Shown: positions 31,084 through 64,000 of the stretch, in pieces | Layout of the letters: the number at the start of each line of letters is the position of its first letter | Numbering within the stretch: the stretch's first letter is position 1 | DNA from: Lepidodermella squamata | Taxonomy: Eukaryota > Animalia > Gastrotricha | Direction of reading: 5' to 3' | DNA: 64,000 nucleotides | NCBI GenBank assembly: GCA_047495785.1 | Contig: JBLDXI010000028.1 | Location: forward strand, 1,905,462 to 1,969,461 | Notes under the pieces: model-generated | Told to the model about the DNA's origin: nothing | Seen by the model: only the letters and a program-made list of their open reading frames with translations | Database searches by the model: none | Program-made: the position numbers and the translations under genes

Positions 31084-31930
31084 GATCGACTCTGTTTGCA
31101 TGCTTCCATGTTCTGGAACTTGTTTTAGCTGTGTTTTATATCAGATCATTTATTGAAGTACATTTCTGACCAACAGTTTCCTAGTTTGAAAGCAAATTTT
31201 GATTGTTACCTCCAGTCTCAGGCTGTTGTCTATTCATGTCTCGTCGATTGTACAACGATTTAACCAGCGACTGACGATTTTGTTTATCGAATTACTAACT
31301 CCGTTTTAAACTGTTGCAGCTTCATTTCGTGACATTCTTGAAAATAAAAGTTCAGTAGCTGTTGAAAATCTGGTCTAGACTTTGCATGCGAGTTTCTAGC
31401 CTCCCACTGAAAAATTCCTCATCGCGACATAATTTCATCTCCGAAGGCGGTGAAACGGAGTGAAAATAGCCAACCAACCAGGGAAATCGATGCAAGTATG
31501 ACCCGACCAACATTACTTTTCCGTTCGGTAATTCAAAATTTACTCGGCTGCCAAGTTCGATACATACAATTGACCTCAAATGGGTCATTAGGACTTTATC
31601 GGATTCGGATTTGATAGGATTAGATTTTTAAAGTGGACAGTGCTGAATTCGATACGAAGAATGCGTGGCAGTCACCGCCCACTTTCCAATTAGTTAGTAA
31701 TGCATGACTGCTTTTTCCTTTGACAGCCATAAGAATTAACATAAAGACACAGGTGATTTCGGAAATCAATTTGGTACGGTATATGATGAAAGCTTCCGCT
31801 TTTGCTGAAATTTAATACCTTGCTTGGTAAACAAGTATATAGGTCGTAAAGTTGATTCGATTTAGCTCATTCACGTTTCAATAGGACAGATCGCGTACAA
31901 TTCAAACAATTCATTTTACTGCGTTTTCAA

Positions 31931-46092: not shown

Positions 46093-46451
46093 GTAAGTTG
46101 GATTGACATCATGGAAAATTGACGATTTGCCTTGATTTAATCGATTATTAACTTCTTTCGATATGGAATTCATGCTTATTTAAAACAGGGTTTATTCCAA
46201 TTTTTAAGTGTCTAAAATTGGTTGCGCCACTACCTAATTTAGGATTTAGGGTTTAAGCACTCTTGCCCTAAATTTGTCCAATTATTTCCAATTATTTAAT
46301 TATTCAAATGTCAAATGTCCAATTATTAGCTTTTTTATCGATCTTAATGCCTCAAATAATCCTGGAATTTTAGTTTTATTTAATTTATAATTTTTATCTG
46401 ATGTTGGGTTCCAATGCTTCTGATATCGGAAAAATCATTGATTATCAAAAT

Positions 46452-47241
46452 CAGCGGTTCTCATGAGGGGGTTTGCGACCCAAAATTGGGTCGCAGAGGC
46501 TTTTCTGATGGGTCGCTAGGTGGACCGCGGGTCGCATGGGTCGAAAGGCAAAAACATGTAAAAAACTAAATAAATGATGAGATGAAATAAATAAATGAGA
46601 TAAAAGTGGAAAAATTACTTATTATCGAATTTTCCAGTGCTATAGAACATGCTTTTTCAACACTTTTAGCTCTGAAACTTAACTTTAGCCTACTTTTTAG
46701 TCAATTTTAACAGGTTTTGGAGCGTTTTTTAATGAAAAATCTTCAAAATGTCTTCGCTTCGCTCGTTTATTGGTTGAAATCAGAGCGTTGACAGAGTGGG
46801 GGGTGGGGGATCGGGAATAAAACACCCCCAAAGAATTCCTGAAAGTGGTTTCCAACTACAATTTTCCTATGAATCCTCCATATTCCACTGCATTTTAAGC
46901 CCATTTTCGGGTTAAAAATGCCAAAAAAGCGTCAGCTAAAGCTCGCTTCGCTCGCGAGCCCGAGGGTGAAAACTATCACCCCCAAAAAAATATCCTGGCT
47001 ACGCCACTGGTTGAAATCACTAGTCATTTTGGGTAATATATAGCACACAATTTTTTTCAGCCTCGACGGCTGCAGGATCCATGTTCCAAGCGTTTCCAAA
47101 ATTGATGCCTAAAAATAGTATAAAAAAGAAGAAAAATAAAGAATGTACCCCCCAAAATTGAAAATTATAAGCGCCAGGGTCGCACAATTTTCTTGAAAAC
47201 CACTTTTAGGGTCGGGAACTGCCCAGTCGTGAGAACCACTG
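46452..47241. mobile_element. hAT (Charlie-like) non-autonomous element; second copy at 48124-48913
   Basis: TIRs CAGCGGTTCTCA / TGAGAACCACTG. 8-bp TSD ATCAAAAT at 46444-46451 and 47242-47249. Subterminal GGGTCGC repeats. Confidence 0.85.
46781..47009. mobile_element. Second hAT-type MITE nested in the first; copy at 48453-48681
   Basis: 8-bp TSD GTTGAAAT at 46773-46780 and 47010-47017. Imperfect TIRs CAGAGCGTTGACAG / CTGGCTACGCCACTG. Confidence 0.75.
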
Positions 47242-47367
47242 ATCAAAATCGATACTCGAATCGAATCGAAATCAGTATCGGCTCTGAAATCGATAGTGTG
47301 GTCTATCGATTTAGCCTTATTATATTTAGCCGAGATCACACAAAAATGAATGAAAAATTGTTGCATA

Positions 47368-47655
47368 CAGGGTGTTTCAGAACTCGCGCACTATATGAAT
47401 AGCATGCGGCAAATGCGCGCGCATTGTTATGCGCATACACTATTATACGCGTATACTATTTTACCTATAAATGTACCACACACTACTGTAGTCAGCGTAT
47501 AAAATATGCGTAATACATAAATGTACAGCATACATAATAGCACTGCCGTAGTTATTTTCTGGTGGAAACCTTCGAGCCTCGATAAATTTGAGCCGAGTTT
47601 CATTGAATATCTTTTTTATTTCGAGGATGATGTCATGTTTTTCTGAAACATGCTG
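47368..47655. mobile_element. Possible Tc1/mariner-type MITE
   Basis: TA-CAGGGTGTTTCAGA ... TCTGAAACATGCTG imperfect TIRs. The right TA is not conserved. Confidence 0.4.
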
Positions 47656-50600
47656 ATTGATTGGACTCTGAAGCGAGAGGTTTCAAAACAATTTCTCAAA
47701 TTCCGTGGCTGGATATTTCAGAAATTGATGATTTCTGAGAAAATTCTGATTTTACTTGATGTTGAATTTGTCGAAATATCGTTGGTTAATTAGTCTCCTG
47801 CCTTGGCATCAAAATTTCTTTCACGTTGCATTAATTCAAGGCCCCGACTGCACATGTTGATAAACAATGACGTTGATCTAAACCACTGGCGAATGTTATA
47901 CATCAGTAGTAAGAAATACCGCTACTAGCCCGATGGCCTGCCCAGAAACTTAGAACTCCAACTAAGCTGAATATAGATGACCTGATAACTCGAATTACGA
48001 ATTTCTCCCGGCCGGTTTTCAATTTATTTATATGCACTAATAATTTTTACAACGAACTGTTTACTGAAGTTACAAGTTTAGTATTTGTATAGTGACGCTC
48101 TCATCGCTTCCAATTATCAAAATCAGCGGTTCTCATGAGGGGGTTTGCGACCCAAAATTGGGTCGCAGAGGCTTTTCTGATGGGTCGCTAGGTGGACCGC
48201 GGGTCGCATGGGTCGAAAGGCAAAAACATGTAAAAAACTAAATAAATGATGAGATGAAATAAATAAATGAGATAAAAGTGGAAAAATTACTTATTATCGA
48301 ATTTTCCAGTGCTATAGAACATGCTTTTTCAACACTTTTAGCTCTGAAACTTAACTTTAGCCTACTTTTTAGTCAATTTTAACAGGTTTTGGAGCGTTTT
48401 TTAATGAAAAATCTTCAAAATGTCTTCGCTTCGCTCGTTTATTGGTTGAAATCAGAGCGTTGACAGAGTGGGGGGTGGGGGATCGGGAATAAAACACCCC
48501 CAAAGAATTCCTGAAAGTGGTTTCCAACTACAATTTTCCTATGAATCCTCCATATTCCACTGCATTTTAAGCCCATTTTCGGGTTAAAAATGCCAAAAAA
48601 GCGTCAGCTAAAGCTCGCTTCGCTCGCGAGCCCGAGGGTGAAAACTATCACCCCCAAAAAAATATCCTGGCTACGCCACTGGTTGAAATCACTAGTCATT
48701 TTGGGTAATATATAGCACACAATTTTTTTCAGCCTCGACGGCTGCAGGATCCATGTTCCAAGCGTTTCCAAAATTGATGCCTAAAAATAGTATAAAAAAG
48801 AAGAAAAATAAAGAATGTACCCCCCAAAATTGAAAATTATAAGCGCCAGGGTCGCACAATTTTCTTGAAAACCACTTTTAGGGTCGGGAACTGCCCAGTC
48901 GTGAGAACCACTGATCAAAATCGATACTCGAATCGAATCGAAATCAGTATCGGCTCTGAAATCGATAGTGTGGTCTATCGATTTAGCCTTATTATATTTA
49001 GCCGAGATCACACAAAAATGAATGAAAAATTGTTGCATACAGGGTGTTTCAGAACTCGCGCACTATATGAATAGCATGCGGCAAATGCGCGCGCATTGTT
49101 ATGCGCATACACTATTATACGCGTATACTATTTTACCTATAAATGTACCACACACTACTGTAGTCAGCGTATAAAATATGCGTAATACATAAATGTACAG
49201 CATACATAATAGCACTGCCGTAGTTATTTTCTGGTGGAAACCTTCGAGCCTCGATAAATTTGAGCCGAGTTTCATTGAATATCTTTTTTATTTCGAGGAT
49301 GATGTCATGTTTTTCTGAAACATGCTGATTGATTGGACTCTGAAGCGAGAGGTTTCAAAACAATTTCTCAAATTCCGTGGCTGGATATTTCAGAAATTGA
49401 TGATTTCTGAGAAAATTCTGATTTTACTTGATGTTGAATTTGTCGAAATATCGTTGGTTAATTAGTCTCCTGCCTTGGCATCAAAATTTCTTTCACGTTG
49501 CATTAATTCAAGGCCCCGACTGCACATGTTGATAAACAATGACGTTGATCTAAACCACTGGCGAATGTTATACATCAGTAGTAAGAAATACCGCTACTAG
49601 CCCGATGGCCTGCCCAGAAACTTAGAACTCCAACTAAGCTGAATATAGATGACCTGATAACTCGAATTACGAATTTCTCCCGGCCGGTTTTCAATTTATT
49701 TATATGCACTAATAATTTTTACAACGAACTGTTTACTGAAGTTACAAGTTTAGTATTTGTATAGTGACGCTCTCATCGCTTCCAATGACCAATGCCCCAT
49801 GGCGACTGGTTGATTGGACCGTGCGGACCGTGCGGACCGTGCGGAAAAGGAACAAAGTCGCGTGGTGCTTGAACTATTGGACGGGGAAATGGGCAGCCGA
49901 GTTCATTGGGTTGAGGAAAACATCCGCCTTCCTTAAAATTGTACTGATTCATCCTACTCAAATAAGATTGATGAATACTAAGAGTTAGATGAAAATTGTC
50001 CACCTGTTTAGTTTCCTGAGAAAAATTTTCCACAATAAGGACAGCCAAAGCAACTTGAAGAGGCGATATCACAGTCTCGATTTTTACAATACAGGCACTC
50101 TACTCCCATGAATAAGCGATTTGCCATGAATGATGCAATGCAGCAAAGCGTCATTTAGGTGCTAAGCAACCTCCTGTTTTTTCGATAATAAGCATAGGAA
50201 TAGAGAGAATTGCGAAGCGCCGAAGTTGGTAGCCGCTAAATAATTAAACAGAAACACAGTTGACGTAAAATGCGAGGAAGTACTGAAGTAGCTTAAACTT
50301 TCATCAATTTTACGCCATTTTTTTCCTGATTCGTGCACCATGCCTGGCCAGCAACCACCTAACGTAACTTGTGGTACTCACGCTAACATGCATAATCCTC
50401 AACATCCAACTTACACGGGACCCTGCAACAAGCAGTGCCAGCATCCTTGCGCAGGGAAGAAATGATCTCGACTCCACTGCGAGTGACTCAATTGACAGGA
50501 AACTAATAACCTCTCATTAAGTTTGTGTAGTTAGTGTTACTAAAACTGCTTATATTCACTATCAATGAGTGGGAAAGGCAAAGATGGCTGTGGTTGCGGT

Positions 50601-50815
50601 GGTAGTGGAAAAACGGACAGTGGCGCCAGTGGTCATGGCAAAACAGGATCGAAATCGAAATGAAGCCGCCATCAAAGCTGCAACGCATTTCAACTTATAA
50701 ATGTTAAAATGTTTCAATATATAAATTGGCTGATTACATCCATTATTTAGTTTGAACATTTGAACTATGGAACATTTAAATATTGAAATATTTTAATTTC
50801 TCAAATAAATATAAG

Positions 50816-51073
50816 ATGCTTCGTCGCAAGGTAATAAATCCCGACAAAATCAGCCAAGCAATCCATGAATATCAGAATAGCTCTAAGACAGTAGATAAAA
50901 TCGCAGCTGAAGTGGGACTCAGCAGAGGCACGATTTACTATCATTTAGGCAAACAACAACGCGTCTCATCGCTGAAGGGCGGTGGCATCAACGTTAGTCT
51001 GATTCCAAAGGATGTCTCTCATGTCGGCGGCAAGGAAGCTTACCTGCTAAGAAGAAGATTTCTCGGTAAATAA
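50816..51073 (+). CDS. Small helix-turn-helix DNA-binding protein
   Basis: KTVDKIAAEVGLSRGTIYYHL is a classic HTH signature. First ATG at 50816. Confidence 0.7.
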   Translation: MLRRKVINPDKISQAIHEYQNSSKTVDKIAAEVGLSRGTIYYHLGKQQRVSSLKGGGINVSLIPKDVSHVGGKEAYLLRRRFLGK

Positions 51074-51080
51074 TATAAGC

Positions 51081-51416
51081 ATGGAGAAAGGATTTCTTTC
51101 ATACACAGAGGTCGATGAAATCGTCGATGAGAAGGATCAAGATATTGACAAACTGAAGCAGGAAGTTGAGATTATCAGCGATCAGTATTCCTCGCTCAAG
51201 AGACAGTCCTCAAATACCCGTATTAAGACTTTGGAGAACGAGAAGGCTGTCATTGAACAGAAATACAGTGATTTGCTGATTGCAAGGGAAAAAGAAGATA
51301 ACGACCGTAAGTTACAGAGCCAGAGGCGCAAAGCTGAGCTGTCTGAACGGCGACAGAAAATGAAGTCAGATATAGAGAAATTCATAGCTGAAATGAGGGC
51401 GCGACGAGAAAAATAA
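51081..51416 (+). CDS. Coiled-coil protein, unknown function
   Basis: 111-aa ATG ORF, E/K/Q-rich heptads, packed between viral ORFs. Confidence 0.65.
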   Translation: MEKGFLSYTEVDEIVDEKDQDIDKLKQEVEIISDQYSSLKRQSSNTRIKTLENEKAVIEQKYSDLLIAREKEDNDRKLQSQRRKAELSERRQKMKSDIEKFIAEMRARREK

Positions 51417-51434: not shown

Positions 51435-51689
51435 ATGAATACTTACTCGAGTGCCCAAGAAGAAATAATCTCATATATAAAGGTGCTTGTTAGAGAACTT
51501 CAGATCGACTGCTTAAGGACGAACACTCAGCTTCAACGCATTTTTGTTGCATTGAGTGTAATCGCCGCGTTGCTAGGGTATTTTGTAAATAGGGATAGAA
51601 TTAAAAAGCCTTCGACCATCAAAGGCAATCATGCTAAAGCAGTTAGAGCACCAAAGAAACGTGTGAAATTTTACTCACCTTTTCGCTAG
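51435..51689 (+). CDS. Small single-pass membrane protein
   Basis: IFVALSVIAALLGYFV followed by a basic tail. Confidence 0.55.
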   Translation: MNTYSSAQEEIISYIKVLVRELQIDCLRTNTQLQRIFVALSVIAALLGYFVNRDRIKKPSTIKGNHAKAVRAPKKRVKFYSPFR

Positions 51690-51690
51690 C

Positions 51691-52272
51691 TTAAGAGACG
51701 TTCACACCGTGCTTTTTCAGTTCCTCAAGAAATATTTGCGTGCGATCACAATTTAAACTCTTCTGGAGCAACCTTTTCATATCATGGAATTTCTCGTTTT
51801 CTCTCATGATTACCTGATACTCAGTGTCACTAATGTGGTTATCTTCCAAGGCTGATTTGATCATGTCGCCAATTGAGTTGGCTTTCGACATAGCAAGCGT
51901 GGCTATTCGCTCATGTTTTTCGGCTTTGCGTTCGAACTTCAAGTCAAGCAGGTTGAGAACTAGTATGACCATACCTCCCGAAGCTGCACTGATTTCCAAA
52001 AGTAGGCCTGTGGGAAGGCCCAGTGACATCAGTGCGATTCCACCAATCGCAAGCGATGTTGTGCCGCCCGTAATTCCATGAATAGTAGCTTTGCAAATTG
52101 ACGAAAAACGGGAATACCTATTGTAAAGCTTCTTTCTTTTCGATATTTCTGTGTTGAAAACATCATTTAGGCGCCGGAGCTCAGCAAGCCTGAACTCTTG
52201 AGTAGAGGACATTTGTAGTCTAGGGGCAGTGGGGTAAATACTTTCTACTGTTTTTAGCTGGTTGTCATTCAT
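51691..52272 (-). CDS. Adintovirus two-TM membrane protein (family annotated as 'gasderminX'-like)
   Basis: YPTAP...FRL...RKKLYNRY, Gly-rich hydrophobic hairpin, KHERIATLAMSKANSI...ALEDNHISDTEY pattern recalled from adintovirus ORFs. First ATG at 52272. Confidence 0.6.
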   Translation of the reverse strand: MNDNQLKTVESIYPTAPRLQMSSTQEFRLAELRRLNDVFNTEISKRKKLYNRYSRFSSICKATIHGITGGTTSLAIGGIALMSLGLPTGLLLEISAASGGMVILVLNLLDLKFERKAEKHERIATLAMSKANSIGDMIKSALEDNHISDTEYQVIMRENEKFHDMKRLLQKSLNCDRTQIFLEELKKHGVNVS

Positions 52273-52286: not shown

Positions 52287-52946
52287 TCACGTATTCTTTA
52301 GGTTAGAAATAATCAAAATGTATGACAGTTGTATGCTTTCGTCAGCTGCTGCAATAACCGTTAAGCTATCATTCAATCGGAATTGCTCTATAAAGGAACA
52401 GTATTCATTGCTACTCTCCAAATTAATATTGTTATAGTTGAAGTATTTCGAGAACAAGTTACCGTTGTTTTTGAAGAAATCAAGAGTGAAGGATGTGGCT
52501 CTGTTGTCGTCCAGCCGGAACCACATTTCCACTCTGGCTGTAACGTCCGCTCGAAACACTAAGCTATCGCTTACTTCAGGCATTCCGGAAATCATGTTAT
52601 CAAAACTTAGCTTATTCTCGCGCGAAAGAGAAACCTTGCCAGAGCATATCAATCTGGAATCCCGAATCGCGCCATCGTTTGGATTTATTGGTGGATGGAT
52701 GTTCGTGAGCCTAGCATTTTTAAAGTCAACAGTCTGATCGGATTGAATCATTAAACAACTTCGCTCAACCCAATTTTTACTAACAGCATCGTTGTCGAAA
52801 ACGGGACCACCCAAATTTTCGATGCAGTAGCTATTCGCGTTTAGGTTTGCCGCAAATGGAGTACTGCCGTCTGCCCTCAAATAAATTGCTGCCTGTCGTG
52901 CATTTTCAAACCATTCACTAGGAATGAATATTTCATTCGATCTCAT
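52287..52946 (-). CDS. Fiber/spike-like protein
   Basis: Two shaft-like repeats IENLGGPVFDNDAVSKNWV and LTNIHPPINPNDGA, followed by a beta-rich head. Confidence 0.55.
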   Translation of the reverse strand: MRSNEIFIPSEWFENARQAAIYLRADGSTPFAANLNANSYCIENLGGPVFDNDAVSKNWVERSCLMIQSDQTVDFKNARLTNIHPPINPNDGAIRDSRLICSGKVSLSRENKLSFDNMISGMPEVSDSLVFRADVTARVEMWFRLDDNRATSFTLDFFKNNGNLFSKYFNYNNINLESSNEYCSFIEQFRLNDSLTVIAAADESIQLSYILIISNLKNT

Positions 52947-53439
52947 AATGAGCGATGACTAGATTATACTTATTCCGCCATTGCCTCAGCGTCTTATCGT
53001 TAACCGATTTCACGTGTACGCTCTGTGCCACAAGGTCGTAGCCATGTTCCTGAGCCAGAGCTTTGATAACAAAGTCAAGGTGCATCATATTTTGATCGGG
53101 AAAGAGTTCTGCATAGCCCAAGTCAAACTTAATAAAGCTCGACATCAACCTCTCAAGTTGAGGAGGTAGCATTTCTATACCGCGCTTTTTAATTACAGTC
53201 ATTAAATGCCATTTTCGTTTGTAAGGTACTAATTTGAATGGCGGGGAGTGCTCACAGTATGGATAGCATAAACCGCAGTTTGGGCATACGTTGAAATTCG
53301 CCCTTTCGTCAAGCAAAAGTTCTGTGGCACACGCATCGCAATACACGTAAGGCATAGTAGAAAATGTCTTTCTCACTGATTTGGAATTCTCAAATATATC
53401 TATCAGTTTCTTCAATTCATCTTCAACGGACGCTTGCAT
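52933..53439 (-). CDS. VLTF3-like late transcription factor
   Basis: Zn ribbon CDAC...VCPNCG followed by PYKRKWHL (cf. the YKRxNHF motif of VLTF3) and C-terminal KTLRQWRNKY. Confidence 0.6.
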   Translation of the reverse strand: MQASVEDELKKLIDIFENSKSVRKTFSTMPYVYCDACATELLLDERANFNVCPNCGLCYPYCEHSPPFKLVPYKRKWHLMTVIKKRGIEMLPPQLERLMSSFIKFDLGYAELFPDQNMMHLDFVIKALAQEHGYDLVAQSVHVKSVNDKTLRQWRNKYNLVIAHYEIE

Positions 53440-53602
53440 CCTTTTTATCTACGATGGCATTTCTCTTTAACACTCTTATGAATTTATACTTTGTCATACC
53501 GCAGAGTGTACAAGATCCTGTCCTGATCGCTCTGTTATTACGAGTTGCTAATTGCTGCTCATTCACTGTATTAGTGTTTTTCCTACAATGCAGGCAATAC
53601 AT
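53423..53602 (-). CDS. 59-aa zinc-ribbon protein (DUF5679-like), not in the ORF track
   Basis: MYCLHCRKNT...GSCTLCGMTKYKFI. TCTA motif 14 nt upstream. Confidence 0.7.
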   Translation of the reverse strand: MYCLHCRKNTNTVNEQQLATRNNRAIRTGSCTLCGMTKYKFIRVLKRNAIVDKKDASVR

Positions 53603-53604
53603 AT

Positions 53605-54063
53605 CTAGCTTAACAATAGATTTTTCAGTAAGTCATCATTGTGCGGCGACCCAGTGTTATTGAAGTCCAGCAAAATAGCTAACTTATCCCTACCTTTAGC
53701 TAGTTCTCTTAGAAAGTAAATGGCATAGAAGCCACATGCAACAGAGCCAGGATGCTGTATATCGTGTGTGGAATACCAAATTACTCGTTTTCCACGACGC
53801 TGAATGATCTCATTAGGGCATATAAACCCGAAGCTATCGAAGTAGATTATTTCAGTCGACTTCACAGCCATTGAGACCCAATGACTTCCGCGGTTAACTT
53901 TATCGTCCAGGTTAATGACGTAATATCCTCGTTGAAGTGTAGCAGGAAGGTCGTCCCGAGCGTAACAGCCCTTGAAGTCGTTTCCGAGAAGCCTCTTTAA
54001 AGCTTCGGTTATCTCAAGATTGGATAGAGGATAAAACCCGCGATTTTTCAGTTTTTTTCCCAC
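53605..54063 (-). CDS. Adenain-like (Ulp1/C5-type) maturation cysteine protease; no AUG before the catalytic His
   Basis: VINLD...GSHWV, YFDSFG, Q...SVACGFYAIYFL. Confidence 0.9.
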   Translation of the reverse strand: MGKKLKNRGFYPLSNLEITEALKRLLGNDFKGCYARDDLPATLQRGYYVINLDDKVNRGSHWVSMAVKSTEIIYFDSFGFICPNEIIQRRGKRVIWYSTHDIQHPGSVACGFYAIYFLRELAKGRDKLAILLDFNNTGSPHNDDLLKNLLLS

Positions 54064-54626
54064 GGCATGTAAACCCCTTTTCCGAATAAGGTCGGAAGAA
54101 ATGCACCCAGTAAGCTTGATACAAGCGGCAATATAAAAGCTCCACCCTGTTGCTCTATGTGGCTTTTAATTGCCTTGCTACTGCCAGCAGGCACAATTTG
54201 TCGGGACTCCAGAAGCGAAACCGCCTTTTGCAGTTCATCTAAATCCTCTTTTGGTATTGTCAGCGACACGCCTTTGCCTACGATCTTGTCAGCTGCTGTA
54301 CTGGCGAGGGAACTGGCAAGGCCGCTCAGCGCTGCAACGGCTACAGGGGCTATAAATTTAGAAGCTGTGGCAAGCGCTGGTAACAGGAACCCGCCAGACT
54401 GATTCTTCCGGAGCTGAGTTTTGCTCAGTTTAATATCAAGCCCTTTCATCCTTTGTTTGCTCTTCATTACTTTATCTATCTGCCTTTGCGTCAACAACAA
54501 CTTGGAACCATTTGGATCTGCAAGAAGCTGATCAATTGTGAAACGCAATACAACTTGGCCTGGTTTTTGAAATGCTCTTCTCTGGGTCTCTGTTAGTTTA
54601 ATGTCGAATGGAATGTATTTAGTCAT
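54048..54626 (-). CDS. Virion core / membrane-active precursor protein
   Basis: Basic N-half (LTQRQIDK, IKLSKTQLRK). GG|FL and GKG sites flank amphipathic helices (GGFLLPALATASKFIAP; GGAFILPLVSSLLGAFLPTLFGKG). Confidence 0.7.
   Translation of the reverse strand: MTKYIPFDIKLTETQRRAFQKPGQVVLRFTIDQLLADPNGSKLLLTQRQIDKVMKSKQRMKGLDIKLSKTQLRKNQSGGFLLPALATASKFIAPVAVAALSGLASSLASTAADKIVGKGVSLTIPKEDLDELQKAVSLLESRQIVPAGSSKAIKSHIEQQGGAFILPLVSSLLGAFLPTLFGKGVYMPWEKN
54051..54057 (-). other. Putative -1 ribosomal frameshift slippery heptamer A_AAA_AAC
   Basis: Core ORF ends TGG GAA AAA AAC TGA. The protease ORF is in the -1 frame at this point. Confidence 0.7.
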
Positions 54627-54647
54627 TATTATTCTAAGTTAGAAAAT

Positions 54648-56021
54648 TCACAGCATGTTAAGGCTTATCTCGAGCTTATCGTCTTTGTAGTTGAAGCCTA
54701 TTTCTTTTTCCCTAAAAATGAAACAAAACATAACTAATGGCTTATCGACAGGACTGATTCTAGCTTTAAATGTGACACTCACGCTTTGGTCACCGCGTGA
54801 ATTATATATAGCACCGGCATCTACACTTTCCAGATTGAATGCCAGGAAACGGTAAAATCGACAAAAATCAAGGTAACTAAGCTGACTACCAGTGTTCGTG
54901 CTTTCGCGATCGTTGAAATGGTTCATGTTTTCCTTAATATAGTTATAGAGCCGGTGAGCGTTGAAGCGTGAAAAGTTCATGTTGGCCTCGGCAAACGCCT
55001 CCTTATTGTTTATCATGAGAGAGTAGCTGAATATATTCCATTGAGTGTAAATTTGTGTCAGTTTAGTTTGATACTCTGCGTCTGAGAAGTCTTGCAAGAA
55101 TACAATATACAGCCAGCTTGGTTTTTTCATCTCAGATGTGATTGTCCATTGTACTGAAGAACTATTCACAGCAAACTGGGGGCTCTGAAAGCATTCTAGC
55201 GATTGCCATTTGTAAACTTTCGTGAGACCCGTATTGAAAGCTTTCAAAATGCGTGCTCTAGTTTCAGGCATCAATGTGACTTCCGGAATAAACATATAAG
55301 CTGAAGAAATCTGGAAATGCATCCCTTCCGGCAAATCATCGTTTTTCCCTATGGCTGCGACTATGGGTTTGGTGTAATTTGGTGTTAATATCACTCGAAA
55401 TCTCGCCTTGGTCCACATCCCAAAATAATTTTGGAAGAAAGGAATGTCCCTTAAGTAAAGTGTGACAACCATCTTATGATCTTTAACATACAAGGATCTC
55501 AAGAGTAGTCCCTCGTTGCAGCTGTTCTTCGCAGGATCGAAACTTTCTGCTGTAACTTCAGGAGTCATTTCATAATTGACATGGGCTGGGTAGTCTCTGG
55601 CGAAAAGAGATTCTTCCCCAAGACTTCGCGCGTAGTCATCCGACCAGTGAATAACGCCCAGCAACGAGCTCCAGTGTTCGTTATAACGTGTTTGCTCTAC
55701 CTGGTTATCATTATCACCTACTTGCACTTCAACTGTTTCAAACATGGATATAACATGGTTCCTAATTGCGTACTTGTCGGTTGCTTTGAAAGCCTGACTA
55801 TCGTTTCGCCGGAACTCAACACTCAATTGAATATAGGCTTCCCTCGGCAATAAAAACAACTCACGCAAGTTATATGTAGAAAAGATAAGGCGAGAAGGCT
55901 GAGAGGGCTGATCCTGTATAAAACTTGTTGCACAAACCTCGGCCCAGCTTTTCCTTTCGAACTGCCGATCATCTATGGTCGGACTCTCAAAGAGACAGTT
56001 CACTATTTCGGATTGAAGCAT
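54648..56021 (-). CDS. Major capsid protein (double jelly-roll, hexon-like)
   Basis: 457 aa, beta-rich. LPREAYIQLSVEF, ISMFETVEVQV, QISSAYMFIPEVTL, KPSWLYIVF, FLAFNLE. Lies in the structural module. Confidence 0.8.
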   Translation of the reverse strand: MLQSEIVNCLFESPTIDDRQFERKSWAEVCATSFIQDQPSQPSRLIFSTYNLRELFLLPREAYIQLSVEFRRNDSQAFKATDKYAIRNHVISMFETVEVQVGDNDNQVEQTRYNEHWSSLLGVIHWSDDYARSLGEESLFARDYPAHVNYEMTPEVTAESFDPAKNSCNEGLLLRSLYVKDHKMVVTLYLRDIPFFQNYFGMWTKARFRVILTPNYTKPIVAAIGKNDDLPEGMHFQISSAYMFIPEVTLMPETRARILKAFNTGLTKVYKWQSLECFQSPQFAVNSSSVQWTITSEMKKPSWLYIVFLQDFSDAEYQTKLTQIYTQWNIFSYSLMINNKEAFAEANMNFSRFNAHRLYNYIKENMNHFNDRESTNTGSQLSYLDFCRFYRFLAFNLESVDAGAIYNSRGDQSVSVTFKARISPVDKPLVMFCFIFREKEIGFNYKDDKLEISLNML

Positions 56022-56040
56022 TTAAATAGGCATTAGATAT

Positions 56041-56340
56041 TTAGCGTATCAGCTTAAAGCCAGTTCCAGTGTAATTATCGATGTCTCTTTTGATTTTCTT
56101 CTCTAGCTCCTCAATAGCGTGGATAGAGCGCTCAGCTTGTTTTGCCGGCAGCACTTTGTCTGCAAGTTTGTTCGCGGCATAGGCACCTATTTTGTCACCG
56201 GCAACTTCCGCTGCCTTTGATAGAGCTGATTTGGCCAAAGTCTGAACCGGTAAGAGACCGGTAAATCTGTCGAGCATATTTTTTGCGATGTCTACATAAC
56301 CGCGTCCTACGACATATGCTTTTGTTCTGCGATTTTTCAT
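56041..56340 (-). CDS. Small basic/amphipathic core protein precursor
   Basis: VVGRG|YVD and YTGTG|F putative cleavage sites. Ala/Lys-rich helix. Confidence 0.65.
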   Translation of the reverse strand: MKNRRTKAYVVGRGYVDIAKNMLDRFTGLLPVQTLAKSALSKAAEVAGDKIGAYAANKLADKVLPAKQAERSIHAIEELEKKIKRDIDNYTGTGFKLIR

Positions 56341-56363
56341 TATAACAAAGTAACTAGAAAAAG

Positions 56364-57104
56364 CTAGCGAATATCAAGACCAATACCCCATTTTCTTTCA
56401 GTCATCTCCAGTGGTGCACCAGCCTGGGTGGTGAGCGTTATTTTTATGTTTTGTGTATTAGCATTCGTACAGGACAAGTAGCGTTTCTCATTTGGAACAA
56501 TGTTAACGTGTTGACCGAAATTTTTGTTAATCGGACAGGTGAAGATGACATCACTAACCTCCGGGACTAGGCTATTATTGACGACGTTACAGTGAACAAA
56601 CATCGAGTCATTTGACATCGTGATGTTAGGAATATGCTGCCCATTAAAATCTGCCCGGAATTCGCCTTTGTCTACACCTAGAAATTCAGACGTAGCATCA
56701 TGCTCGATCAGAAGAGCGTAACCTGGTTGAATTCGAAAGCTCAGTTTATTCAGAACAGTATTGACAGACAAGCTTATGCCGTAAACTTCTGAGCCGTCGA
56801 TGGTCTTGAAATGGCCGTTTCCCTTCATAACAAAGTGAATATAATTGTTATAATCACGAAAAGTGAAGGTTCCATCAGGAAATCGTATTTCAAAAGTTTT
56901 GTCTTCTGGATCTTTATATCTGAGCTTACTATTACCTGAAGCATGTGATACATTATAAAAAACATCGTAAAAGTGAATGTAGGAAACGGCGATGCTGCGC
57001 TTTGTGAAATCGATCTTATCATTCAGGTAACGATCGATGACGTTGCTGGCGTCCGACCTGTTATTGCAGTAATATTCCAAAGGCAGAAATATTGGATCAC
57101 CCAT
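56364..57104 (-). CDS. Minor capsid protein (penton, single jelly-roll)
   Basis: YNVSHASGNSKLRY, IRFPDGTF, SMFVHCNVVNNS, IKITLTTQAGAPL. Confidence 0.8.
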   Translation of the reverse strand: MGDPIFLPLEYYCNNRSDASNVIDRYLNDKIDFTKRSIAVSYIHFYDVFYNVSHASGNSKLRYKDPEDKTFEIRFPDGTFTFRDYNNYIHFVMKGNGHFKTIDGSEVYGISLSVNTVLNKLSFRIQPGYALLIEHDATSEFLGVDKGEFRADFNGQHIPNITMSNDSMFVHCNVVNNSLVPEVSDVIFTCPINKNFGQHVNIVPNEKRYLSCTNANTQNIKITLTTQAGAPLEMTERKWGIGLDIR

Positions 57105-58140
57105 TTACCATTGTTATTAGATTTTCGTATTCAGCTTTGGTCAATCTATTGTTCTTCAAAAGAAAATCTGCAATGCTCACAACTTCGTTATATATTTCAG
57201 CGTTATTGTTTCCCGCTCTGATTTCACCAATCGCGTTTACAAGCCTCTTTTGGGCATCAACAACATCAGTTACGTAAATTCTGTTCCAGATTTTAGAATG
57301 GGGTTTGGGTCGATATCCAGTCAGTTCACAAATTTTTTGATATTGATCGTAGTCTTGCTTAGAAAAGTTCACCTTCGGATTGTACCTTTTCAAGAGCAAT
57401 TGTTTGACACCATCACTTATGTCTATATCGGCTAAACCTTGCACTTTACCTTTATTCTTCTTGCGAATCCTTAAAACCCCTCGCTTTATGTCGTCTTTTC
57501 TGGCGTAAAACCTACCAATTTTTAAATAATTGTTGGATATACCTGTACCAGATTTCTCAAGTAGCACCCGTTGATTCTCAAAAGTCTCAAGCAACGAGTT
57601 CTTGAAGTTTTTCAAAATTTGTATATCATTTTGAATCGATTGATACTGTGGAGAGTCTTTGTATCCTTTTTTAGTGAGTTGAGCTAATTGGGAGCCCAAA
57701 ACATTTTTATTATAGTGCGAAAGAGATACAATAATATGCGCGGGATCAGCCCCAGCCTCTTCAATCTCTTTAGCTGTGGGGAAGTTATGTCTCTTCAAAA
57801 CTATGTTCTCCACTGATTCCTTCGCCTCTTCAGTTGTCGGCTCCGCCTTTGGTAATACCGCTTCCAGACGATGCGGGTGATTAGCTGTTGGTAAGCTTCT
57901 CTTTGCTGTTTGTTTGAGCTCCTTGGCAACTGATCTTATTGCTTCCACAGTTGGCATCTGCCTGTAAGTCTCTTGCAAAGCTGTAAGGGGATCGGGTTCA
58001 ACATTTACACTATGCTTATACTTTAAAGCATATACATCGCCTTTAACCATGGCCAAGTGTCGGTCGTACATCTTTTCCTGCTTATCTAAATCTTCAAGAA
58101 TTCGAATTTGTTCATCAGTTGTTAATTCGCGTAGCGGCAT
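57097..58140 (-). CDS. Conserved Polinton/adintovirus protein, unknown function
   Basis: C-terminal RLVNAIGEIRAGNNN...EVVSIADFLLKNNRLT motif and internal SGTG|I site. Start moved to the ATG at 58140 (track start is GTG; TCTA motif 11 nt upstream). Confidence 0.7.
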   Translation of the reverse strand: MPLRELTTDEQIRILEDLDKQEKMYDRHLAMVKGDVYALKYKHSVNVEPDPLTALQETYRQMPTVEAIRSVAKELKQTAKRSLPTANHPHRLEAVLPKAEPTTEEAKESVENIVLKRHNFPTAKEIEEAGADPAHIIVSLSHYNKNVLGSQLAQLTKKGYKDSPQYQSIQNDIQILKNFKNSLLETFENQRVLLEKSGTGISNNYLKIGRFYARKDDIKRGVLRIRKKNKGKVQGLADIDISDGVKQLLLKRYNPKVNFSKQDYDQYQKICELTGYRPKPHSKIWNRIYVTDVVDAQKRLVNAIGEIRAGNNNAEIYNEVVSIADFLLKNNRLTKAEYENLITMVNG

Positions 58141-58340
58141 ATCACTCTGACTAGAATAAATCGCTCCTTGTTCGCCCAGCGGTCGCTCCTCGTTAGCCAC
58201 ATGATCGCTTTTTGAACGCCAAATGATCGCCCATTGAACGCTCAGTTGAACTCATCTTATATTGGAGATAATCAGCAAAGCTAAGATAATTCAAACTGTT
58301 TGATAGATAATTTAAACTAATTTCTAATAGTTAAAAATGA

Positions 58341-59033
58341 TTAGGCGAAGATTGAAGCGTAGTTAGCTCTTAGTCTTAGACACTGTGGCTTGCTTTGACC
58401 GTCAATGATAAACGAACCATGAGGAAGGCTTACGGCTTCATTGTACTTGGCAATAAACTCTGTTGTCTTAATTGAGGGGGCGTATATTCGATGAATTAGG
58501 CTCAGCTCCCTGTTGTCTGCCAGCTTCTTCAGCACAACAAAATCGGCATTATCCCTAATTGTCTTTGGGATCTTAAAATATGACTGCGAAAGATAAAAGG
58601 CTGACGCGTTGTATTTTCGGCATCTTATCCACATTGCACCGATATGTGTTTCTTGCAGCTTCTTTTGCTCCATGCAGATATCGTCGAAAGCATAAGCATG
58701 CTGGAAACTTTTATCCAGGCTCTCAAGAGGCATGACTTCAGAAATGTCATTGGAAGAGTGAACAAGGCTTACTGAAATTCCTTGCTTGGAAAGAATGTCT
58801 TCCTTTTGTTTCTGAAGCCTAATCAAGTACTCGTACTTGTCCTCATCTAGAGTTTTACTATATAAGTAGATCTTGTGAAAAAATGAGTTATGCAGTATAG
58901 TCAAAAGATCTGAAGTCTTTCCGGTCCCGGACGGTCCAATAATAAGACATCGAAAAGGATGCTGAGGGAAAAAGGGCGATCCATTTTTGTACTCCTGTCG
59001 CTGTGATTGAACGATGCTGTCCCAATTAATCAT
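58341..59033 (-). CDS. A32/FtsK-like genome-packaging ATPase
   Basis: PFRCLIIGPSGTGKT (Walker A), YAFDDI (Walker B), RKYNASAFYLSQSYFKIPKTIRDNA. Likely ATG at 59033. Confidence 0.92.
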   Translation of the reverse strand: MINWDSIVQSQRQEYKNGSPFFPQHPFRCLIIGPSGTGKTSDLLTILHNSFFHKIYLYSKTLDEDKYEYLIRLQKQKEDILSKQGISVSLVHSSNDISEVMPLESLDKSFQHAYAFDDICMEQKKLQETHIGAMWIRCRKYNASAFYLSQSYFKIPKTIRDNADFVVLKKLADNRELSLIHRIYAPSIKTTEFIAKYNEAVSLPHGSFIIDGQSKPQCLRLRANYASIFA

Positions 59034-59069
59034 TTGCTCTTTATTTAGATTTTCAAGTCCTAATGAATA

Positions 59070-60491
59070 ATGTTTGACAGAATAATTAACAGCTTGCCGG
59101 TGGAATTTCATTTACCGAGTTATCCCGTTCAAGGAGAAATCGTTCCTGGAGGGTCTTATAACAATAAGCAGTCATATAGCTACGCTGGCCCAGGAACACA
59201 TTTTGCGCAAAGAATGAGGCAGGGCTACAGAGGTATAAATGAGTTGGACGAGGCAGCCAGAGAACATGACGCTGCCTATCACTTTTACAAAGACAGAGAG
59301 CGACGCACCGTTAGCGATAGAATTCTTGCAGACAAGGCACTCAGGATTGCAAGCGATCTATCGAAAAGTGGTTACGAGAGGGCTATGGCAGCATTTGTCT
59401 ACAAAACGTTCGTTGAAGGTGGAATCGCTGACCACCTGCAGGGGAAAGGCATGGTTCTTCGAGATAGGAAACCTGTTAGTTACTCGCAACAAATTCCGAA
59501 GCGAAAGACAAAACAAGAGCCGCCGCGATCAGAAACAGTTAGCAAAATGAAGTTTGAAACATTAGCTGAGGAGCTTCATAAACCCGCAAGAAAGCGGTTT
59601 CCAAGACGTCGCGTTCATGTGCATAACGTTGACGACACATGGGGCATGGACATCGTCTTCATGAACGACTTGACCGATGACAATAATGGCTATAAGTACA
59701 TTTTAACCGTGATATGCTGCTTCAGCAGATATGCATGGGCCGTCCCCTTGAAATCAAAAGACGCAAAAAGTGTTTTCGATGCCTTCTCATCAGTTATAAA
59801 GACAAGCCGACGACAGCCTAAAAATATTTGGGTCGATGAGGGCAGTGAATTTTATAATTCAATCTTCACTAAATGGTTGAAAGCAAATAAGGTGAATCGG
59901 TACTCGACCTATGAAAATTTTCATAATCCTATGATCGAGAGGTTTAACAGGACTCTTAAAACTAGAATGTGGAAACGCTTTACACGAAACAACTCACGCA
60001 ATTGGGTTGCAATATTAGATGACCTAGTTAGAGAGTACAACCTTACTAAGCACAGATCGATTCGAATGACGCCAATTCAGGCGACTGATCCAAAGAATAG
60101 AGACATCGTTCACAACAATTTGTACGCGGAATCAGAGGAAAATAAGTTACTTAAGCCCAAATTCGCTGTTGGTGACATTGTGAGGATCAGTCGACTGAAA
60201 GAGACCTTTGAAAAAGGTTTCCACCCTTCATGGAGTGAAGAACTTCTCAAAGTCGTCAAGGTTAACGAAACCCTTCCTAGAACCTATAAAATTGAGGCTC
60301 TAGATGGTGAACCAGTAGTAGGTAGCTTCTACGAACAGGAATTGCAGAAATCTTCCCAACAGCAAGAAAACCTTTACCGGGTTGAAAAGATTTTGAGAAG
60401 AAAGAAAGTTAAAGGTAAGGAAATGGTTCACGTCAAATGGGCAGGATATGATAAGCCGACTTGGGAGCCCGCAGATAACTTGTTGGATTAG
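59070..60491 (+). CDS. Fusion of parvovirus-type phospholipase A2, retroviral-like (rve) integrase and chromodomain
   Basis: YSYAGPGT...INELDEAAREHDAAY (PLA2). WGMDIV / IWVDEGSEF / IERFNRTLK (DDE). YRVEKIL...VKWAGYDKPTWEP (chromodomain). Confidence 0.92.
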   Translation: MFDRIINSLPVEFHLPSYPVQGEIVPGGSYNNKQSYSYAGPGTHFAQRMRQGYRGINELDEAAREHDAAYHFYKDRERRTVSDRILADKALRIASDLSKSGYERAMAAFVYKTFVEGGIADHLQGKGMVLRDRKPVSYSQQIPKRKTKQEPPRSETVSKMKFETLAEELHKPARKRFPRRRVHVHNVDDTWGMDIVFMNDLTDDNNGYKYILTVICCFSRYAWAVPLKSKDAKSVFDAFSSVIKTSRRQPKNIWVDEGSEFYNSIFTKWLKANKVNRYSTYENFHNPMIERFNRTLKTRMWKRFTRNNSRNWVAILDDLVREYNLTKHRSIRMTPIQATDPKNRDIVHNNLYAESEENKLLKPKFAVGDIVRISRLKETFEKGFHPSWSEELLKVVKVNETLPRTYKIEALDGEPVVGSFYEQELQKSSQQQENLYRVEKILRRKKVKGKEMVHVKWAGYDKPTWEPADNLLD

Positions 60492-60516
60492 TTCAATCAT
60501 GACCGCACAGTGAAGC

Positions 60517-60825
60517 CTATGAGAGCAATTTTTGCAGTTTTATTGCCAACATTTGATTTATAATTTCCTCTATATCCTTCGTCGTAAGGTTTTCAGGCTT
60601 AGGCTCACACGTTCTGCCACTTGTGATCGCTCCTTCCATTTGTGAAGTTACTTCATGACATTTTCCCTGTACAGGGTTTGCACGACTTGCTCTAACAACT
60701 TCCATAGTTTTCTTCCAATAGTTTTTGCAAGCTATACGATGCTGATCACGATAGCCTGTCTCGCGTTCTTCTTCAGTCAGATATTTCTTCGGGCGACCTC
60801 TTTGCTTAATCGTGTTTGTAGTCAT
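60517..60825 (-). CDS. Small basic protein with AT-hook-like RGRPKK
   Basis: KQRGRPKKYLTEEER...KNYWKK. TCTA motif 13 nt upstream. Confidence 0.65.
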   Translation of the reverse strand: MTTNTIKQRGRPKKYLTEEERETGYRDQHRIACKNYWKKTMEVVRASRANPVQGKCHEVTSQMEGAITSGRTCEPKPENLTTKDIEEIINQMLAIKLQKLLS

Positions 60826-60917
60826 TATATATTATCATTAGAAAAAAACTATATAAGATTTTCTGCAATTGCGGAAAATTACTTAAAGATTTTTTTCTTA
60901 GTATAATATATACAATC

Positions 60918-63900
60918 ATGACCGACAACAGTGAAACCAATGTAATGGGACCTAACGGTCGTCGTATTAAGGTTGGTGGCCGAGCATACAATACGCTATT
61001 GAGGAAGGGTTTTGAATTAAAAGATAACCGTTGGACGAAGGGTGGGATGCCTTACGAGAGAACCCAACGGAAAACAGTATTAAATCCTATCACGCAAAAA
61101 TATATTTCTATCGGTTCGTCCAATTTCAAAAAACTTGAGAAGGAGTTTTTCTATGACGAAGCGAATAATCAGCTTATGAAACGAGGTGTGAGCAAGATAA
61201 AAAGGGGCAGCCAGGACTATCAGAGGCTGCGTAAAGATGGCTATATCTTGAATTCTGCTGGTGAAATGGTGTTCCGAGGGCAGAAAGAAAATCATGTCAT
61301 AAATCCTAAGACTTTGAAATTCATCAAATGGGGTGGACCAACGTATAACAAGATGATTGCCGACGGCTATATTTATATCGAGCGCATTAACTCTCTCGAG
61401 AATAACAATTATATGGAATTTAATGAGCAGAAAAATCCCGAGCATTTAAAGAATATCCTCTATAGGTTAGACATTGAAGCTCATAATTCAGGAAGTGATT
61501 TCCATCTATTCACCGAAAAGGTTAGAGAATCAGTTGTTGATTACGTGCAAGAAAAATTAGAGCAAAATGATAACATTAAAATAGTGTTTAACGCTGATTT
61601 GAATTGGAAAAAAGACAACAATAGTAAATCAGAACATAAATGGTCTTCCGCTGTAAAGGCTGCCCCAGTTATCAGGAAATATGATGACATAGGGAGCGTT
61701 GTAGACCAACACTTCTCTCAACTTGGTGGTTCCATTGAGAATTACGAGCAGCGCGGCTCCGGATGGATCTTCCAAAACATTTCGCGACTCCGTGTTTGTG
61801 CTTTCAGCTACTGCCCGTTAGGGACAGGATCTTACATTCCAACACCGAAGTTTATTGCAGATAAAAAGGCCGTTATAAATGTTAAAAACACCGACGATGA
61901 ATGCATTATCTGGAGCATGCTGGCTTGCTTGCATCCAGTAGATAAAAATGCACAGGAAACATCCAAGTACAAGTTTTTTAAAAATGAACTGAAACATGAC
62001 GGTATCAAGTTTCCCATTTCGTGGAACGACATTTCAAATCTTGAAGATCAGAATAGGATAAAGATCAACGTGATTGAATACAAAGAAAAAGATGGTTGCC
62101 ATCGCCTCATTTCATACTACGCGTCGAAGAAACCTTACGCCCAAGAAGTTAACCTTCTGCGAACTACTCTCAGAGACGGTGCTAAGGTGATAGCACACTT
62201 CAGCTGGATAAAAAATTTGAGCCGGTTGCTACCTAGTTCTGATCAGCACAAAAAGCATTGGTGCTTACAGTGTCTGACTGGATTTGACAGCGAAATAAAG
62301 CTGAAAGAGCATAATTGCATAGTAAATGGCAACGTCATAGTGAAGTTTCCTCCGAAAGGTAGCCAAGTTATTTTCAAAAATTACTACAAGCAGCTTGAAG
62401 TACCGTTCGTTTTCTATTGTGATGCGGAGACTACGCTAACGAATTCCGATGTTCAAAAGGGTAGGTCCTTGATTTATCAGAAGCATGTTGCGAATTCCTT
62501 CGGATGTTTACTGGCTAGTAAGGTACCTGAAATCCGTTCGAAGTATTGGCAGTTTGAAGGGGCAAATTGTGCGGAGCAGTTCCTGAGATTCTTGATTAAA
62601 AAGCAATACAGTTTGAGGAAATTTATCCAGGAAACCAATAAAGACATGGTGTTATCTCAACCAGAGCAACAAAGTTATGATAATGCACAGCACTGCCATG
62701 TTTGCCGAAGCGCCTTGGGCGACGATAAAGTCCGCGATCATGACCATCTTACAGGCCGTTTCAGGGGAGCTGCTCATAATGCCTGCAATCTGAATTTGAA
62801 TCTCAAGCATTCTTTCATCCCGGTTGTTTTTCATAACCTGAGTGGGTACGATTCGCACTTGATAATGCAGGCAGCCGGAAAAGTAGTGAACGAAATCAAT
62901 GGAGAAAAGATTGCAAATTTCAAAAAAGAAGACAAAAAGAAAAGACCAAACCTGTTGACGATTGACGTCATAGCTAATTCCTCGGAAAAGTATTTAAGTT
63001 TTAGTATAGGCAAACTTCGATTTATCGATTCGTTTCAGTTTATGAGTGAAAGCCTGGACCAAATAGTCAGTAATCTGAAAAAATCGGGAAAGAGATTCGC
63101 TCATTTTGATGAACAGCTTTCCAAGTTCACAACTGAACAAAGATCCCTGCTGCTTCGTAAGGGAGTGTATCCGTACGATTATATAGATAGCCTCGACAAA
63201 CTGAATGAAACTCAGCTACCGAATAAGTCACATTTCTCAAACAGACTAAATTCTTGTTCGCTTGATGATAACAAAATCGAAATAACTTCTATATCTGACG
63301 AGGATTATGAACACGCACAAGCCGTTTGGTCAAAACTGAATTGCAAAACTCTGAAAGACTACCACGACCTGTATTTGAAAACAGATGTTCTCTTGTTAGC
63401 AGATTGTTTTGACAGTTTTCGAGACACCTGCATAAGCTATTACGATCTGGACCCGGCGCATTATTTAGGTGCACCTGGGTTAAGTTGGGACGCGATGTTG
63501 AAATACACACGTGTTGAACTGGATCTCTTTGATAATAAGGAGATGCTTGAATTCGTTGAAAAAGGCATAAGAGGCGGTATAGCTGTTATTCCTGGGAGGT
63601 ACGCGAAGGCTAACAACGAAGGTATGACAGACTATGACGCAAATGCTCCGAAATCGTTTATAATGTATTGGGACGCCAACGCGCTTTATTCTTTCGCGAT
63701 GACCCAGTGGTTACCGCAGAAAGACTTCGAATGGATTGGTCCTGAAACAATCACCAAAGATTTCGTGAAGTCAATTGGGGCCAAAGACGAATTCGGGTAC
63801 ATGCTGGAGGTTGATATCGACTATCCTGCAAGGCTTCATAACTCACATAATGACTATCCGTTTTGTCCAGAGCATATTCTTTGCGAACCGAGCCCTCACA

Positions 63901-64000
63901 TGCAAGATCTGCATAAGCAATTAGGACTTAACAGGCCGGCGAAGGTGAAAAAGCTAACACAAAATCTGAACGACAAGAAAAATTACGTCATGCACTATCG
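60918..64000 (+). CDS. Protein-primed family B DNA polymerase (pPolB), open at the window end and missed by the ORF track
   Basis: Continuous frame from ATG 60918: GSGW, SYIPTP...VINVKNTDDECIIWS (vOTU-like), C2H2 finger, YCDAET (ExoI), CHVC...DHDHLTGRFRGAAHNACN, FHNLSGYDSH (ExoII), RKGVYPYDY, YLKTDVLLLAD (ExoIII), IRGG, YWDANALYSFAM (motif A). Confidence 0.95.
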   Translation, partial: MTDNSETNVMGPNGRRIKVGGRAYNTLLRKGFELKDNRWTKGGMPYERTQRKTVLNPITQKYISIGSSNFKKLEKEFFYDEANNQLMKRGVSKIKRGSQDYQRLRKDGYILNSAGEMVFRGQKENHVINPKTLKFIKWGGPTYNKMIADGYIYIERINSLENNNYMEFNEQKNPEHLKNILYRLDIEAHNSGSDFHLFTEKVRESVVDYVQEKLEQNDNIKIVFNADLNWKKDNNSKSEHKWSSAVKAAPVIRKYDDIGSVVDQHFSQLGGSIENYEQRGSGWIFQNISRLRVCAFSYCPLGTGSYIPTPKFIADKKAVINVKNTDDECIIWSMLACLHPVDKNAQETSKYKFFKNELKHDGIKFPISWNDISNLEDQNRIKINVIEYKEKDGCHRLISYYASKKPYAQEVNLLRTTLRDGAKVIAHFSWIKNLSRLLPSSDQHKKHWCLQCLTGFDSEIKLKEHNCIVNGNVIVKFPPKGSQVIFKNYYKQLEVPFVFYCDAETTLTNSDVQKGRSLIYQKHVANSFGCLLASKVPEIRSKYWQFEGANCAEQFLRFLIKKQYSLRKFIQETNKDMVLSQPEQQSYDNAQHCHVCRSALGDDKVRDHDHLTGRFRGAAHNACNLNLNLKHSFIPVVFHNLSGYDSHLIMQAAGKVVNEINGEKIANFKKEDKKKRPNLLTIDVIANSSEKYLSFSIGKLRFIDSFQFMSESLDQIVSNLKKSGKRFAHFDEQLSKFTTEQRSLLLRKGVYPYDYIDSLDKLNETQLPNKSHFSNRLNSCSLDDNKIEITSISDEDYEHAQAVWSKLNCKTLKDYHDLYLKTDVLLLADCFDSFRDTCISYYDLDPAHYLGAPGLSWDAMLKYTRVELDLFDNKEMLEFVEKGIRGGIAVIPGRYAKANNEGMTDYDANAPKSFIMYWDANALYSFAMTQWLPQKDFEWIGPETITKDFVKSIGAKDEFGYMLEVDIDYPARLHNSHNDYPFCPEHILCEPSPHMQDLHKQLGLNRPAKVKKLTQNLNDKKNYVMHY

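Follow-up and report, generated by a model that had tools for sequence, protein, structure and literature searches.

The 64,000-nt stretch of Lepidodermella squamata DNA analysed here (hereafter the window) contains a Polinton-type element that spans from about 50.8 kb to the window end. As in Polintons/Mavericks, its gene set, read in the window, includes a double jelly-roll major capsid protein (MCP, recognised via its homologs), an A32 packaging ATPase and an adenain-like protease, together with an rve integrase with a C-terminal chromodomain (Pfam, rve E 2.9e-13, Chromo E 1.1e-7). A sequence-only reading had noted that TCTA, the core of the late promoter of Cafeteria roenbergensis virus (CroV) and its virophage mavirus, stands shortly before nearly all structural genes of this element, which also encodes a VLTF3-like factor. 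All ten sites named in that reading are present on the minus strand, with gaps of 11-14 nt to the start codon:

52304..52307, minus strand: TCTA 13 nt before GTG 52290, a putative start in frame with ORF52272 (ORF, open reading frame)
52960..52963, minus strand: TCTA 13 nt before the fiber-like gene, within the VLTF3-like coding sequence
53617..53620, minus strand: TCTA 14 nt before the DUF5679 gene (ATG 53602), within the protease coding sequence
54640..54643, minus strand: TCTA 13 nt before the core gene
56034..56037, minus strand: TCTA 12 nt before the MCP gene
56355..56358, minus strand: TCTA 14 nt before the small core gene
57118..57121, minus strand: TCTA 13 nt before the penton gene, within the ORF58140 coding sequence
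58152..58155, minus strand: TCTA 11 nt before ORF58140
59046..59049, minus strand: TCTA 12 nt before the ATPase start at 59033
60828..60844, minus strand: TTTCT-N7-ATATA including TCTA at 60839-60842, 13 nt before ORF60825; member of both box classes described below

For the ATPase, the 12-nt gap is true only for the second ATG (59033), not for that at 59111; independently of the motif, the start equivalent to 59033 is used by 17/17 close homologs (P0014-P0030).

The TCTA box is enriched at a fixed distance from start codons

Nine of the 16 ATG starts have TCTA 11-14 nt ahead of them, against 3/433 of the remaining ATGs between 50750 and 64000 (Fisher p 1.3e-12), 0/98 ATGs in AT-rich background and 21/1584 host ATGs, the last being a weak control since most of these ATGs are internal. 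The 11-14 window came from the earlier reading, and the look-elsewhere test therefore allowed all 4-mers and all 4-wide spacing windows; the best of 2000 dinucleotide shuffles gave 8 and none the observed 9, so that the enrichment over shuffled controls, proposed at the time as a check, proved significant. The sequence type claimed for the motif also held, with four A/T bases directly 5' of TCTA in 10/10 sites and a 3' flank less uniformly A/T. Of the extended form WWWWTCTAR the element has 12 copies, eight of them followed at 11-14 nt by an ATG and one by a GTG, vs 2/28 in the host part. A chance origin, or a side effect of AT-rich spacers and of stop codons (CTAA, CTAG), might be suspected of a motif with only four fixed bases that occurs at 84 sites in the element altogether; this reading is largely refuted by the shuffles and the AT-rich controls, by the stop codons of upstream genes, which fall outside the motif, and by four sites that sit inside coding sequence, and we give it practically no weight. 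The box is a real and strong signal, and its sequence is a novel form of an established kind of promoter.

The cassette is tightly packed, with gene gaps of -17 to 23 nt for most genes, and contains few AATAAA signals. Such abutting and overlapping genes, as well as a gap that is measured to the start codon, would suit a signal that acts on long read-through mRNAs, as a 5' leader or in RNA processing or translation re-initiation. However, most sites lack a conserved AG after the motif, so that a splice acceptor is unlikely, an identical core has been reported as promoter in CroV, and the motif also stands before ORF58140, a gene with 200 nt of free DNA upstream. A post-transcriptional role is quite improbable.

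Gene content of the element

50816..51073, plus strand: helix-turn-helix (HTH) protein, 85 aa; Pfam HTH families below cut-off, best E 1.8e-4
51081..51416, plus strand: coiled-coil-like ORF51081, 111 aa; ORF list
51435..51689, plus strand: small ORF51435, 84 aa, without TCT box; ORF list
51691..52272, minus strand: conserved Polinton protein with hydrophobic segment (ORF52272), 193 aa; 29% identity to an ORF of locus L116, E 4e-19
52287..52946, minus strand: fiber-like ORF, 219 aa; label unconfirmed, weak atlas look-alikes only
52933..53439, minus strand: VLTF3-like protein, 168 aa, without TCT box; CxxC-CxxC zinc ribbon and predicted single cyclin fold
53423..53602, minus strand: DUF5679 zinc-ribbon protein, 59 aa; PF18930 E 2.3e-15
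53605..54050, minus strand: adenain-like cysteine protease frame, no ATG at the N-terminal motif; Peptidase_C5 E 1.4e-4, above cut-off
54048..54626, minus strand: core-like protein, 192 aa; GxG/xGG motifs
54648..56021, minus strand: MCP, 457 aa; homologs P0009 and P0011 match the double jelly-roll-like domain PF21738
56041..56340, minus strand: small core-like protein, 99 aa; ORF list
56364..57104, minus strand: penton-like minor capsid protein, labelled from position; 23% identity to the syntenic L116 ORF
57097..58140, minus strand: conserved ORF58140, 347 aa; seven homologs at 52-65%
58341..59033, minus strand: A32-like packaging ATPase; Pox_A32 E 2.8e-10
59070..60491, plus strand: fusion of phospholipase A2 (PLA2)-like domain, rve integrase and chromodomain, 473 aa; Pfam; TCAA, not TCTA, at gap 13
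60517..60825, minus strand: ORF60825, 102 aa, basic N-terminus; no assigned function, not shown to be structural
60918..64000, plus strand, runs off the window: presumed protein-primed family B polymerase (pPolB); 49% identity to an ORF of locus L001

The fiber, core and small core labels have no database confirmation. The ORF at 60918..64000 we take to be pPolB from its polymerase motifs; in Pfam and PHROGs it matches only through an endonuclease VII-like insert, and a PDB search was empty. As to the claim that nearly all structural genes carry the motif, it does mark virion and packaging genes; ORF60825 is not shown to be one of the former. TCTA is, as reported, absent at that spacing before pPolB, integrase, VLTF3, HTH and protease, but HTH and pPolB carry another TCT form and the protease has no ATG of its own, hence no TCTA.

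The PLA2 domain, of parvovirus type, is joined in frame to the integrase-chromodomain part (59070-60491, plus strand) via a GKG motif that resembles the motifs of the core proteins, so that the fused integrase may be packaged and cleaved. This gene and that of the ATPase diverge from a common 36-nt spacer.

A second form of the TCT box precedes other genes

The motif TTTCT-N7-9-ATATA precedes the HTH gene, ORF51081, pPolB and ORF60825, with no further copies in the element and one in 46 kb of host DNA; this second class was defined by eye and is a post hoc pattern. Apart from the ORF60825 site given above, the copies read TTTCTC or TTTCTT rather than TCTA:

50797..50813, plus strand: TTTCT-N7-ATATA before the HTH gene
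51059..51077, plus strand: TTTCT-N9-ATATA before ORF51081
60894..60910, plus strand: TTTCT-N7-ATATA before pPolB

A TCT box of some form thus stands ahead of 12/16 starts, those without one being ORF51435, ORF52272, VLTF3 and the PLA2-integrase; the box of ORF52272 lies 31 nt from its ATG, or 13 nt before GTG 52290. As a refinement of the earlier reading, TCTA would be one class of a two-class TCT-box code, and the two forms appear to divide by gene class, which fits a temporal cascade.

The box recurs in distant Polinton-like loci

Relatives at 50-72% identity are known solely as proteins: scans for the MCP in contigs from viruses, metagenomes and genomes, and one for VLTF3, yielded no DNA of close relatives, ATPase scans (one of which covered 16/64 parts) gave relatives at 26-39% only, and a PF04947 search had 0 matches in the 3/50 records covered. 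The protein relatives back the box indirectly: the ORF58140 C-terminus that overlies the penton promoter reads [NDH]-L-[MI] in 6/6 full-length homologs (of seven, one being cut) and N-[GE] at the window's spacing in 5/6; these residues are compatible with AT-CTA-A and an overlapping ATG, without demonstrating them. [ND]-L-V is kept in 3/6 VLTF3 homologs. For P0008, translation of the part upstream would allow a gap of 14.

Distant loci were found by the ATPase alone (160) or by the polymerase (one), and those with an ATPase ORF were dereplicated to 59; 548 first-ATG upstream regions from these were compared with 200 mononucleotide shuffles. WTCTN at gap 11-14 occurred 98 times vs 21 expected (shuffle maximum 32; mode 13), WWTCTA 31 times vs 8, and 109 regions vs 9 contained the bipartite form. 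At the level of single loci with at least six ORFs, the box was significant at 0.01 in 18/38, and loci of similar gene order differed, with the box at 9/18 starts in L002 and 7/12 in L082, vs 0/11 in L116, 1/8 in L135 and 2/19 in L003. In L003, a different fixed upstream motif, TTGCTAATATA, stands ahead of many genes. The TCT box therefore looks inherited, old, widespread and patchy.

Co-occurrence of motif and VLTF3, another check proposed, spoke against control by an own VLTF3: the factor was not detected in 17/18 motif-positive distant loci, which are partial and were searched with an insensitive profile. Such absences are soft, as our own VLTF3 profile and regular expression missed the true VLTF3 of L160, a Polinton-like contig with a clear VLTF3 (L160:2130-2729, Pfam E 5.6e-14) and TCT boxes.

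The spread of the box bears on the suggestion that the element behaves like a provirophage, its promoters being tuned to the late machinery that a large DNA virus brings in on co-infection, as in mavirus and CroV. Published accounts place the TCTA promoter motif in CroV, ChlorV, mavirus and type 4 EMALEs (endogenous mavirus-like elements; PMC5294985, PMC13196603, PMC8547959, 10.1101/068312), a CroV-like late motif occurs in some Halocafeteria virophages (10.64898/2026.07.28.741278), and integrated mavirus was proposed to be activated by a CroV late factor (10.1101/068312). The present box shares with those of CroV/ChlorV and mavirus/type 4 EMALEs the TCTA core, the A/T-rich flank and the position shortly before the start codon, and box-positive aquatic loci are mostly without detected VLTF3, as expected of a helper-dependent element. 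On the other hand, the box is too widespread to indicate one helper, the element's own VLTF3-like gene lessens the need for one, no helper virus turned up (none was specifically sought), and, among the viruses compared, late TCTA is common to CroV and ChlorV only, both protist viruses (PMC13196603). The element moreover differs from CroV and mavirus in being a Polinton of a likely animal host, in bearing the motif on virion genes rather than on all genes, in its second TCT form and in its own VLTF3-like gene. In CroV, the late motif lies 11-20 nt from the start. In mavirus, it stands before essentially all genes, replication genes included, whereas here it precedes 9/16 and is missing before pPolB, integrase, HTH and VLTF3. 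Helper dependence is thus unsupported so far and, to us, improbable; since the box is widespread in distant loci, TCTA alone is no sign of a CroV-like helper, and a match to it should not be read as proving that such a partner exists.

The VLTF3-like protein

The earlier assignment of a VLTF3-like protein is supported. The N-terminal CxxC-CxxC ribbon has four Cys invariant in 7/7 sequences, and the A2L ribbon matched the window protein with E 0.0087 and homolog P0111 with E 5.4e-5, the latter above cut-off. For the C-terminal Pox_VLTF3 domain, the window protein had no Pfam match and the homologs remained below cut-off (E 5e-4 and 0.011); atlas confidence was very high, and Foldseek gave E 3e-3 to VLTF3-like models. 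An hhalign comparison with the L160 VLTF3 was not significant, and a PDB sequence search with the VLTF3 profile returned zinc-finger noise only. TFIIB consists of a zinc ribbon followed by two cyclin repeats; the structure model of the VLTF3-like protein has the ribbon and one cyclin fold, so that a cut-down TFIIB-like build is predicted.

The gene is intact, with six close homologs. This conservation, the split of the two box forms along gene class and the lack of enrichment at host ATGs (subject to the weakness of that control) argue against a box that serves as core promoter or initiator for the host machinery alone, with the VLTF3-like protein incidental or modulating. The animal initiator is YYA+1, which CTA resembles, and the fixed short gap to the ATG suits an initiator, as do some TCT form ahead of three-quarters of the starts and the many distant loci with the box and without detectable VLTF3. 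We consider host machinery alone an unlikely explanation.

A possible early-late switch

These data bear on how Polintons, which lack an RNA polymerase, activate their capsid genes, alone or with a helper. No RNA polymerase gene was found in the element portion inside the window, and a host or helper enzyme must therefore transcribe it. We propose, at roughly even confidence, that the AT-flanked TCTA is a late-gene promoter core and that host Pol II, helped by the element's VLTF3-like protein, reads it in the nucleus. The TTTCT-N7-9-ATATA form would drive early genes; the VLTF3-like protein would then recruit Pol II to TCTA sites, and the resulting mRNAs would carry short leaders, with one promoter per gene, also inside upstream coding sequence. 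The protease, without a promoter of its own, would be supplied by -1 frameshifting out of the core gene. The cascade suggested earlier is compatible with the two-class code; its control by the element's own VLTF3 stands less firmly. Three points weigh against this proposal: the motif-positive distant loci without detected VLTF3, a VLTF3-like gene that itself has no recognised promoter, and the fact that no VLTF2 was seen.

A broader version, which we advance tentatively and hold clearly less probable, is a self-run early-late cascade of an animal Polinton, in which a miniature TFIIB-like VLTF3 would direct host Pol II to an ancient TCT box common to Polinton-like and CroV-type giant viruses; the match between virophage and giant virus promoters would then reflect common ancestry, helper dependence would arise where VLTF3 was lost, and the protease would come, as in retroviruses, from a conserved core-protease -1 frameshift. 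With the promoter and a second class defined, and a candidate for the factor, short reporters could probe how the late switch works.

Polintons/Mavericks (adintoviruses), for instance those of stony corals, have patchy VLTF3 and frequent DUF5679 (PMC11131425, citing Krupovic and Koonin 2016 for VLTF3); the element shares this gene set and differs in its integrase, fused to a PLA2-like domain. In the available main text of PMC8502044, PMC11131425, PMC12220804, PMC11071308, 10.1101/2023.08.22.554363 (on a nematode Polinton) and 10.1101/2022.07.12.499685, the word 'promoter' was not found, and our search, which covered sources other than subscription journals and preprint supplements, found no literature on TCTA in animal Polintons or on a core-protease frameshift. 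Mriyaviruses have VLTF3 without a viral RNA polymerase and presumed nuclear transcription (PMC11253617); they differ in also keeping VLTF2 and in lacking pPolB, and 'promoter' is absent from the parts of that paper available. Late-gene promoters of African swine fever virus contain a TATA initiator (PMC7163114), similar to the ATATA half of the second box. In beta- and gammaherpesviruses, a viral factor attaches both to a short motif of late genes (TATT) and to host Pol II (PMC8360532). The analogy with the present element is functional only, the proteins being unrelated and the candidate here being one small predicted TFIIB-like protein. The herpesvirus late factors form a multi-subunit complex with a TBP-like subunit.

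The protease probably arises by frameshifting

The protease frame is -1 relative to the core gene and open across the junction, with the following site in the last codons of the core gene:

54051..54057, minus strand: slippery heptamer A_AAA_AAC, followed by the core stop

A_AAA_AAC is the slippery site of mouse mammary tumour virus, and as in retroviral gag-pro the heptamer closes a structural gene and the protease follows in the -1 frame; unlike gag-pro, this is a DNA virus and no stimulating downstream structure beyond chance was found at the window junction (z -0.18). Among 44 dereplicated proteases, the -1 layout with slippery heptamer was present in 7/7 start-less ones with a located motif and full partner ORF (window included), vs 1/28 with their own Met and 63/513 ORFs generally. 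Adding nine set-aside rows (seven whose N-terminal motif was not located; L136, whose partner ORF has no start in the available stretch and where the slip site is present; and L098, with a Met five residues earlier) gave 7/16 vs 1/28, p 0.002. Junctions with a zero-frame heptamer near the core stop were found at 54048-54057 (minus strand) of the window and in L003, L005, L082, L116, L134, L135 and L138, and a contig from another study (X4) spans the window junction gap-free, with about 32 letters on the short side. A gag-pro-like programmed -1 frameshift from the core gene thus likely makes the protease, and is likely conserved across Polinton-like loci. Slippery sites have been proposed in the adintovirus penton gene, not at the core-protease junction (PMC11071296, available parts). 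If true, the frameshift explains start-less Polinton proteases, and such copies need not be broken.

Copy number and genomic setting

No inverted repeat matching the element ends was found inside the window, the right end lying beyond it. Contigs of sequencing run X1 covered 30/30 bins, mostly at 95% identity or above and with many variants, compatible with a multi-copy family. Contigs of run X3 (RNA by guess only) lay over 54231-55117 and around 50300-50990, with none over most genes; this coverage carries no information on expression or start sites. Deep X3 contigs at window positions 50300-50850, with A-run loose ends at 50829 and 50852, may stem from a polyadenylated RNA of the left end or from a related repeat.

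Host DNA with introns forms the left flank, where an ANF-receptor protein and WDR35, RING-coiled-coil and ankyrin arrays are encoded; this content suits an animal without being proof of one. Two near-identical tandem duplications lie beside the element, one at 46441-48120 / 48113-49792 (99.9% over 1680 nt) and one of WDR35 exons (about 40600-41300 / 42430-43100), and represent either recent duplication or an assembly artefact. Between the duplicated exons, an ORF at 41722-42222 (minus strand) resembles by eye the C-terminus of a LINE (long interspersed nuclear element) reverse transcriptase, with no Pfam match. Further left, positions 1-31100 hold a host tandem array, possibly immune-related, in which RING-coiled-coil genes alternate with ankyrin-repeat genes, followed by the ANF-receptor membrane protein at 31856-34246.

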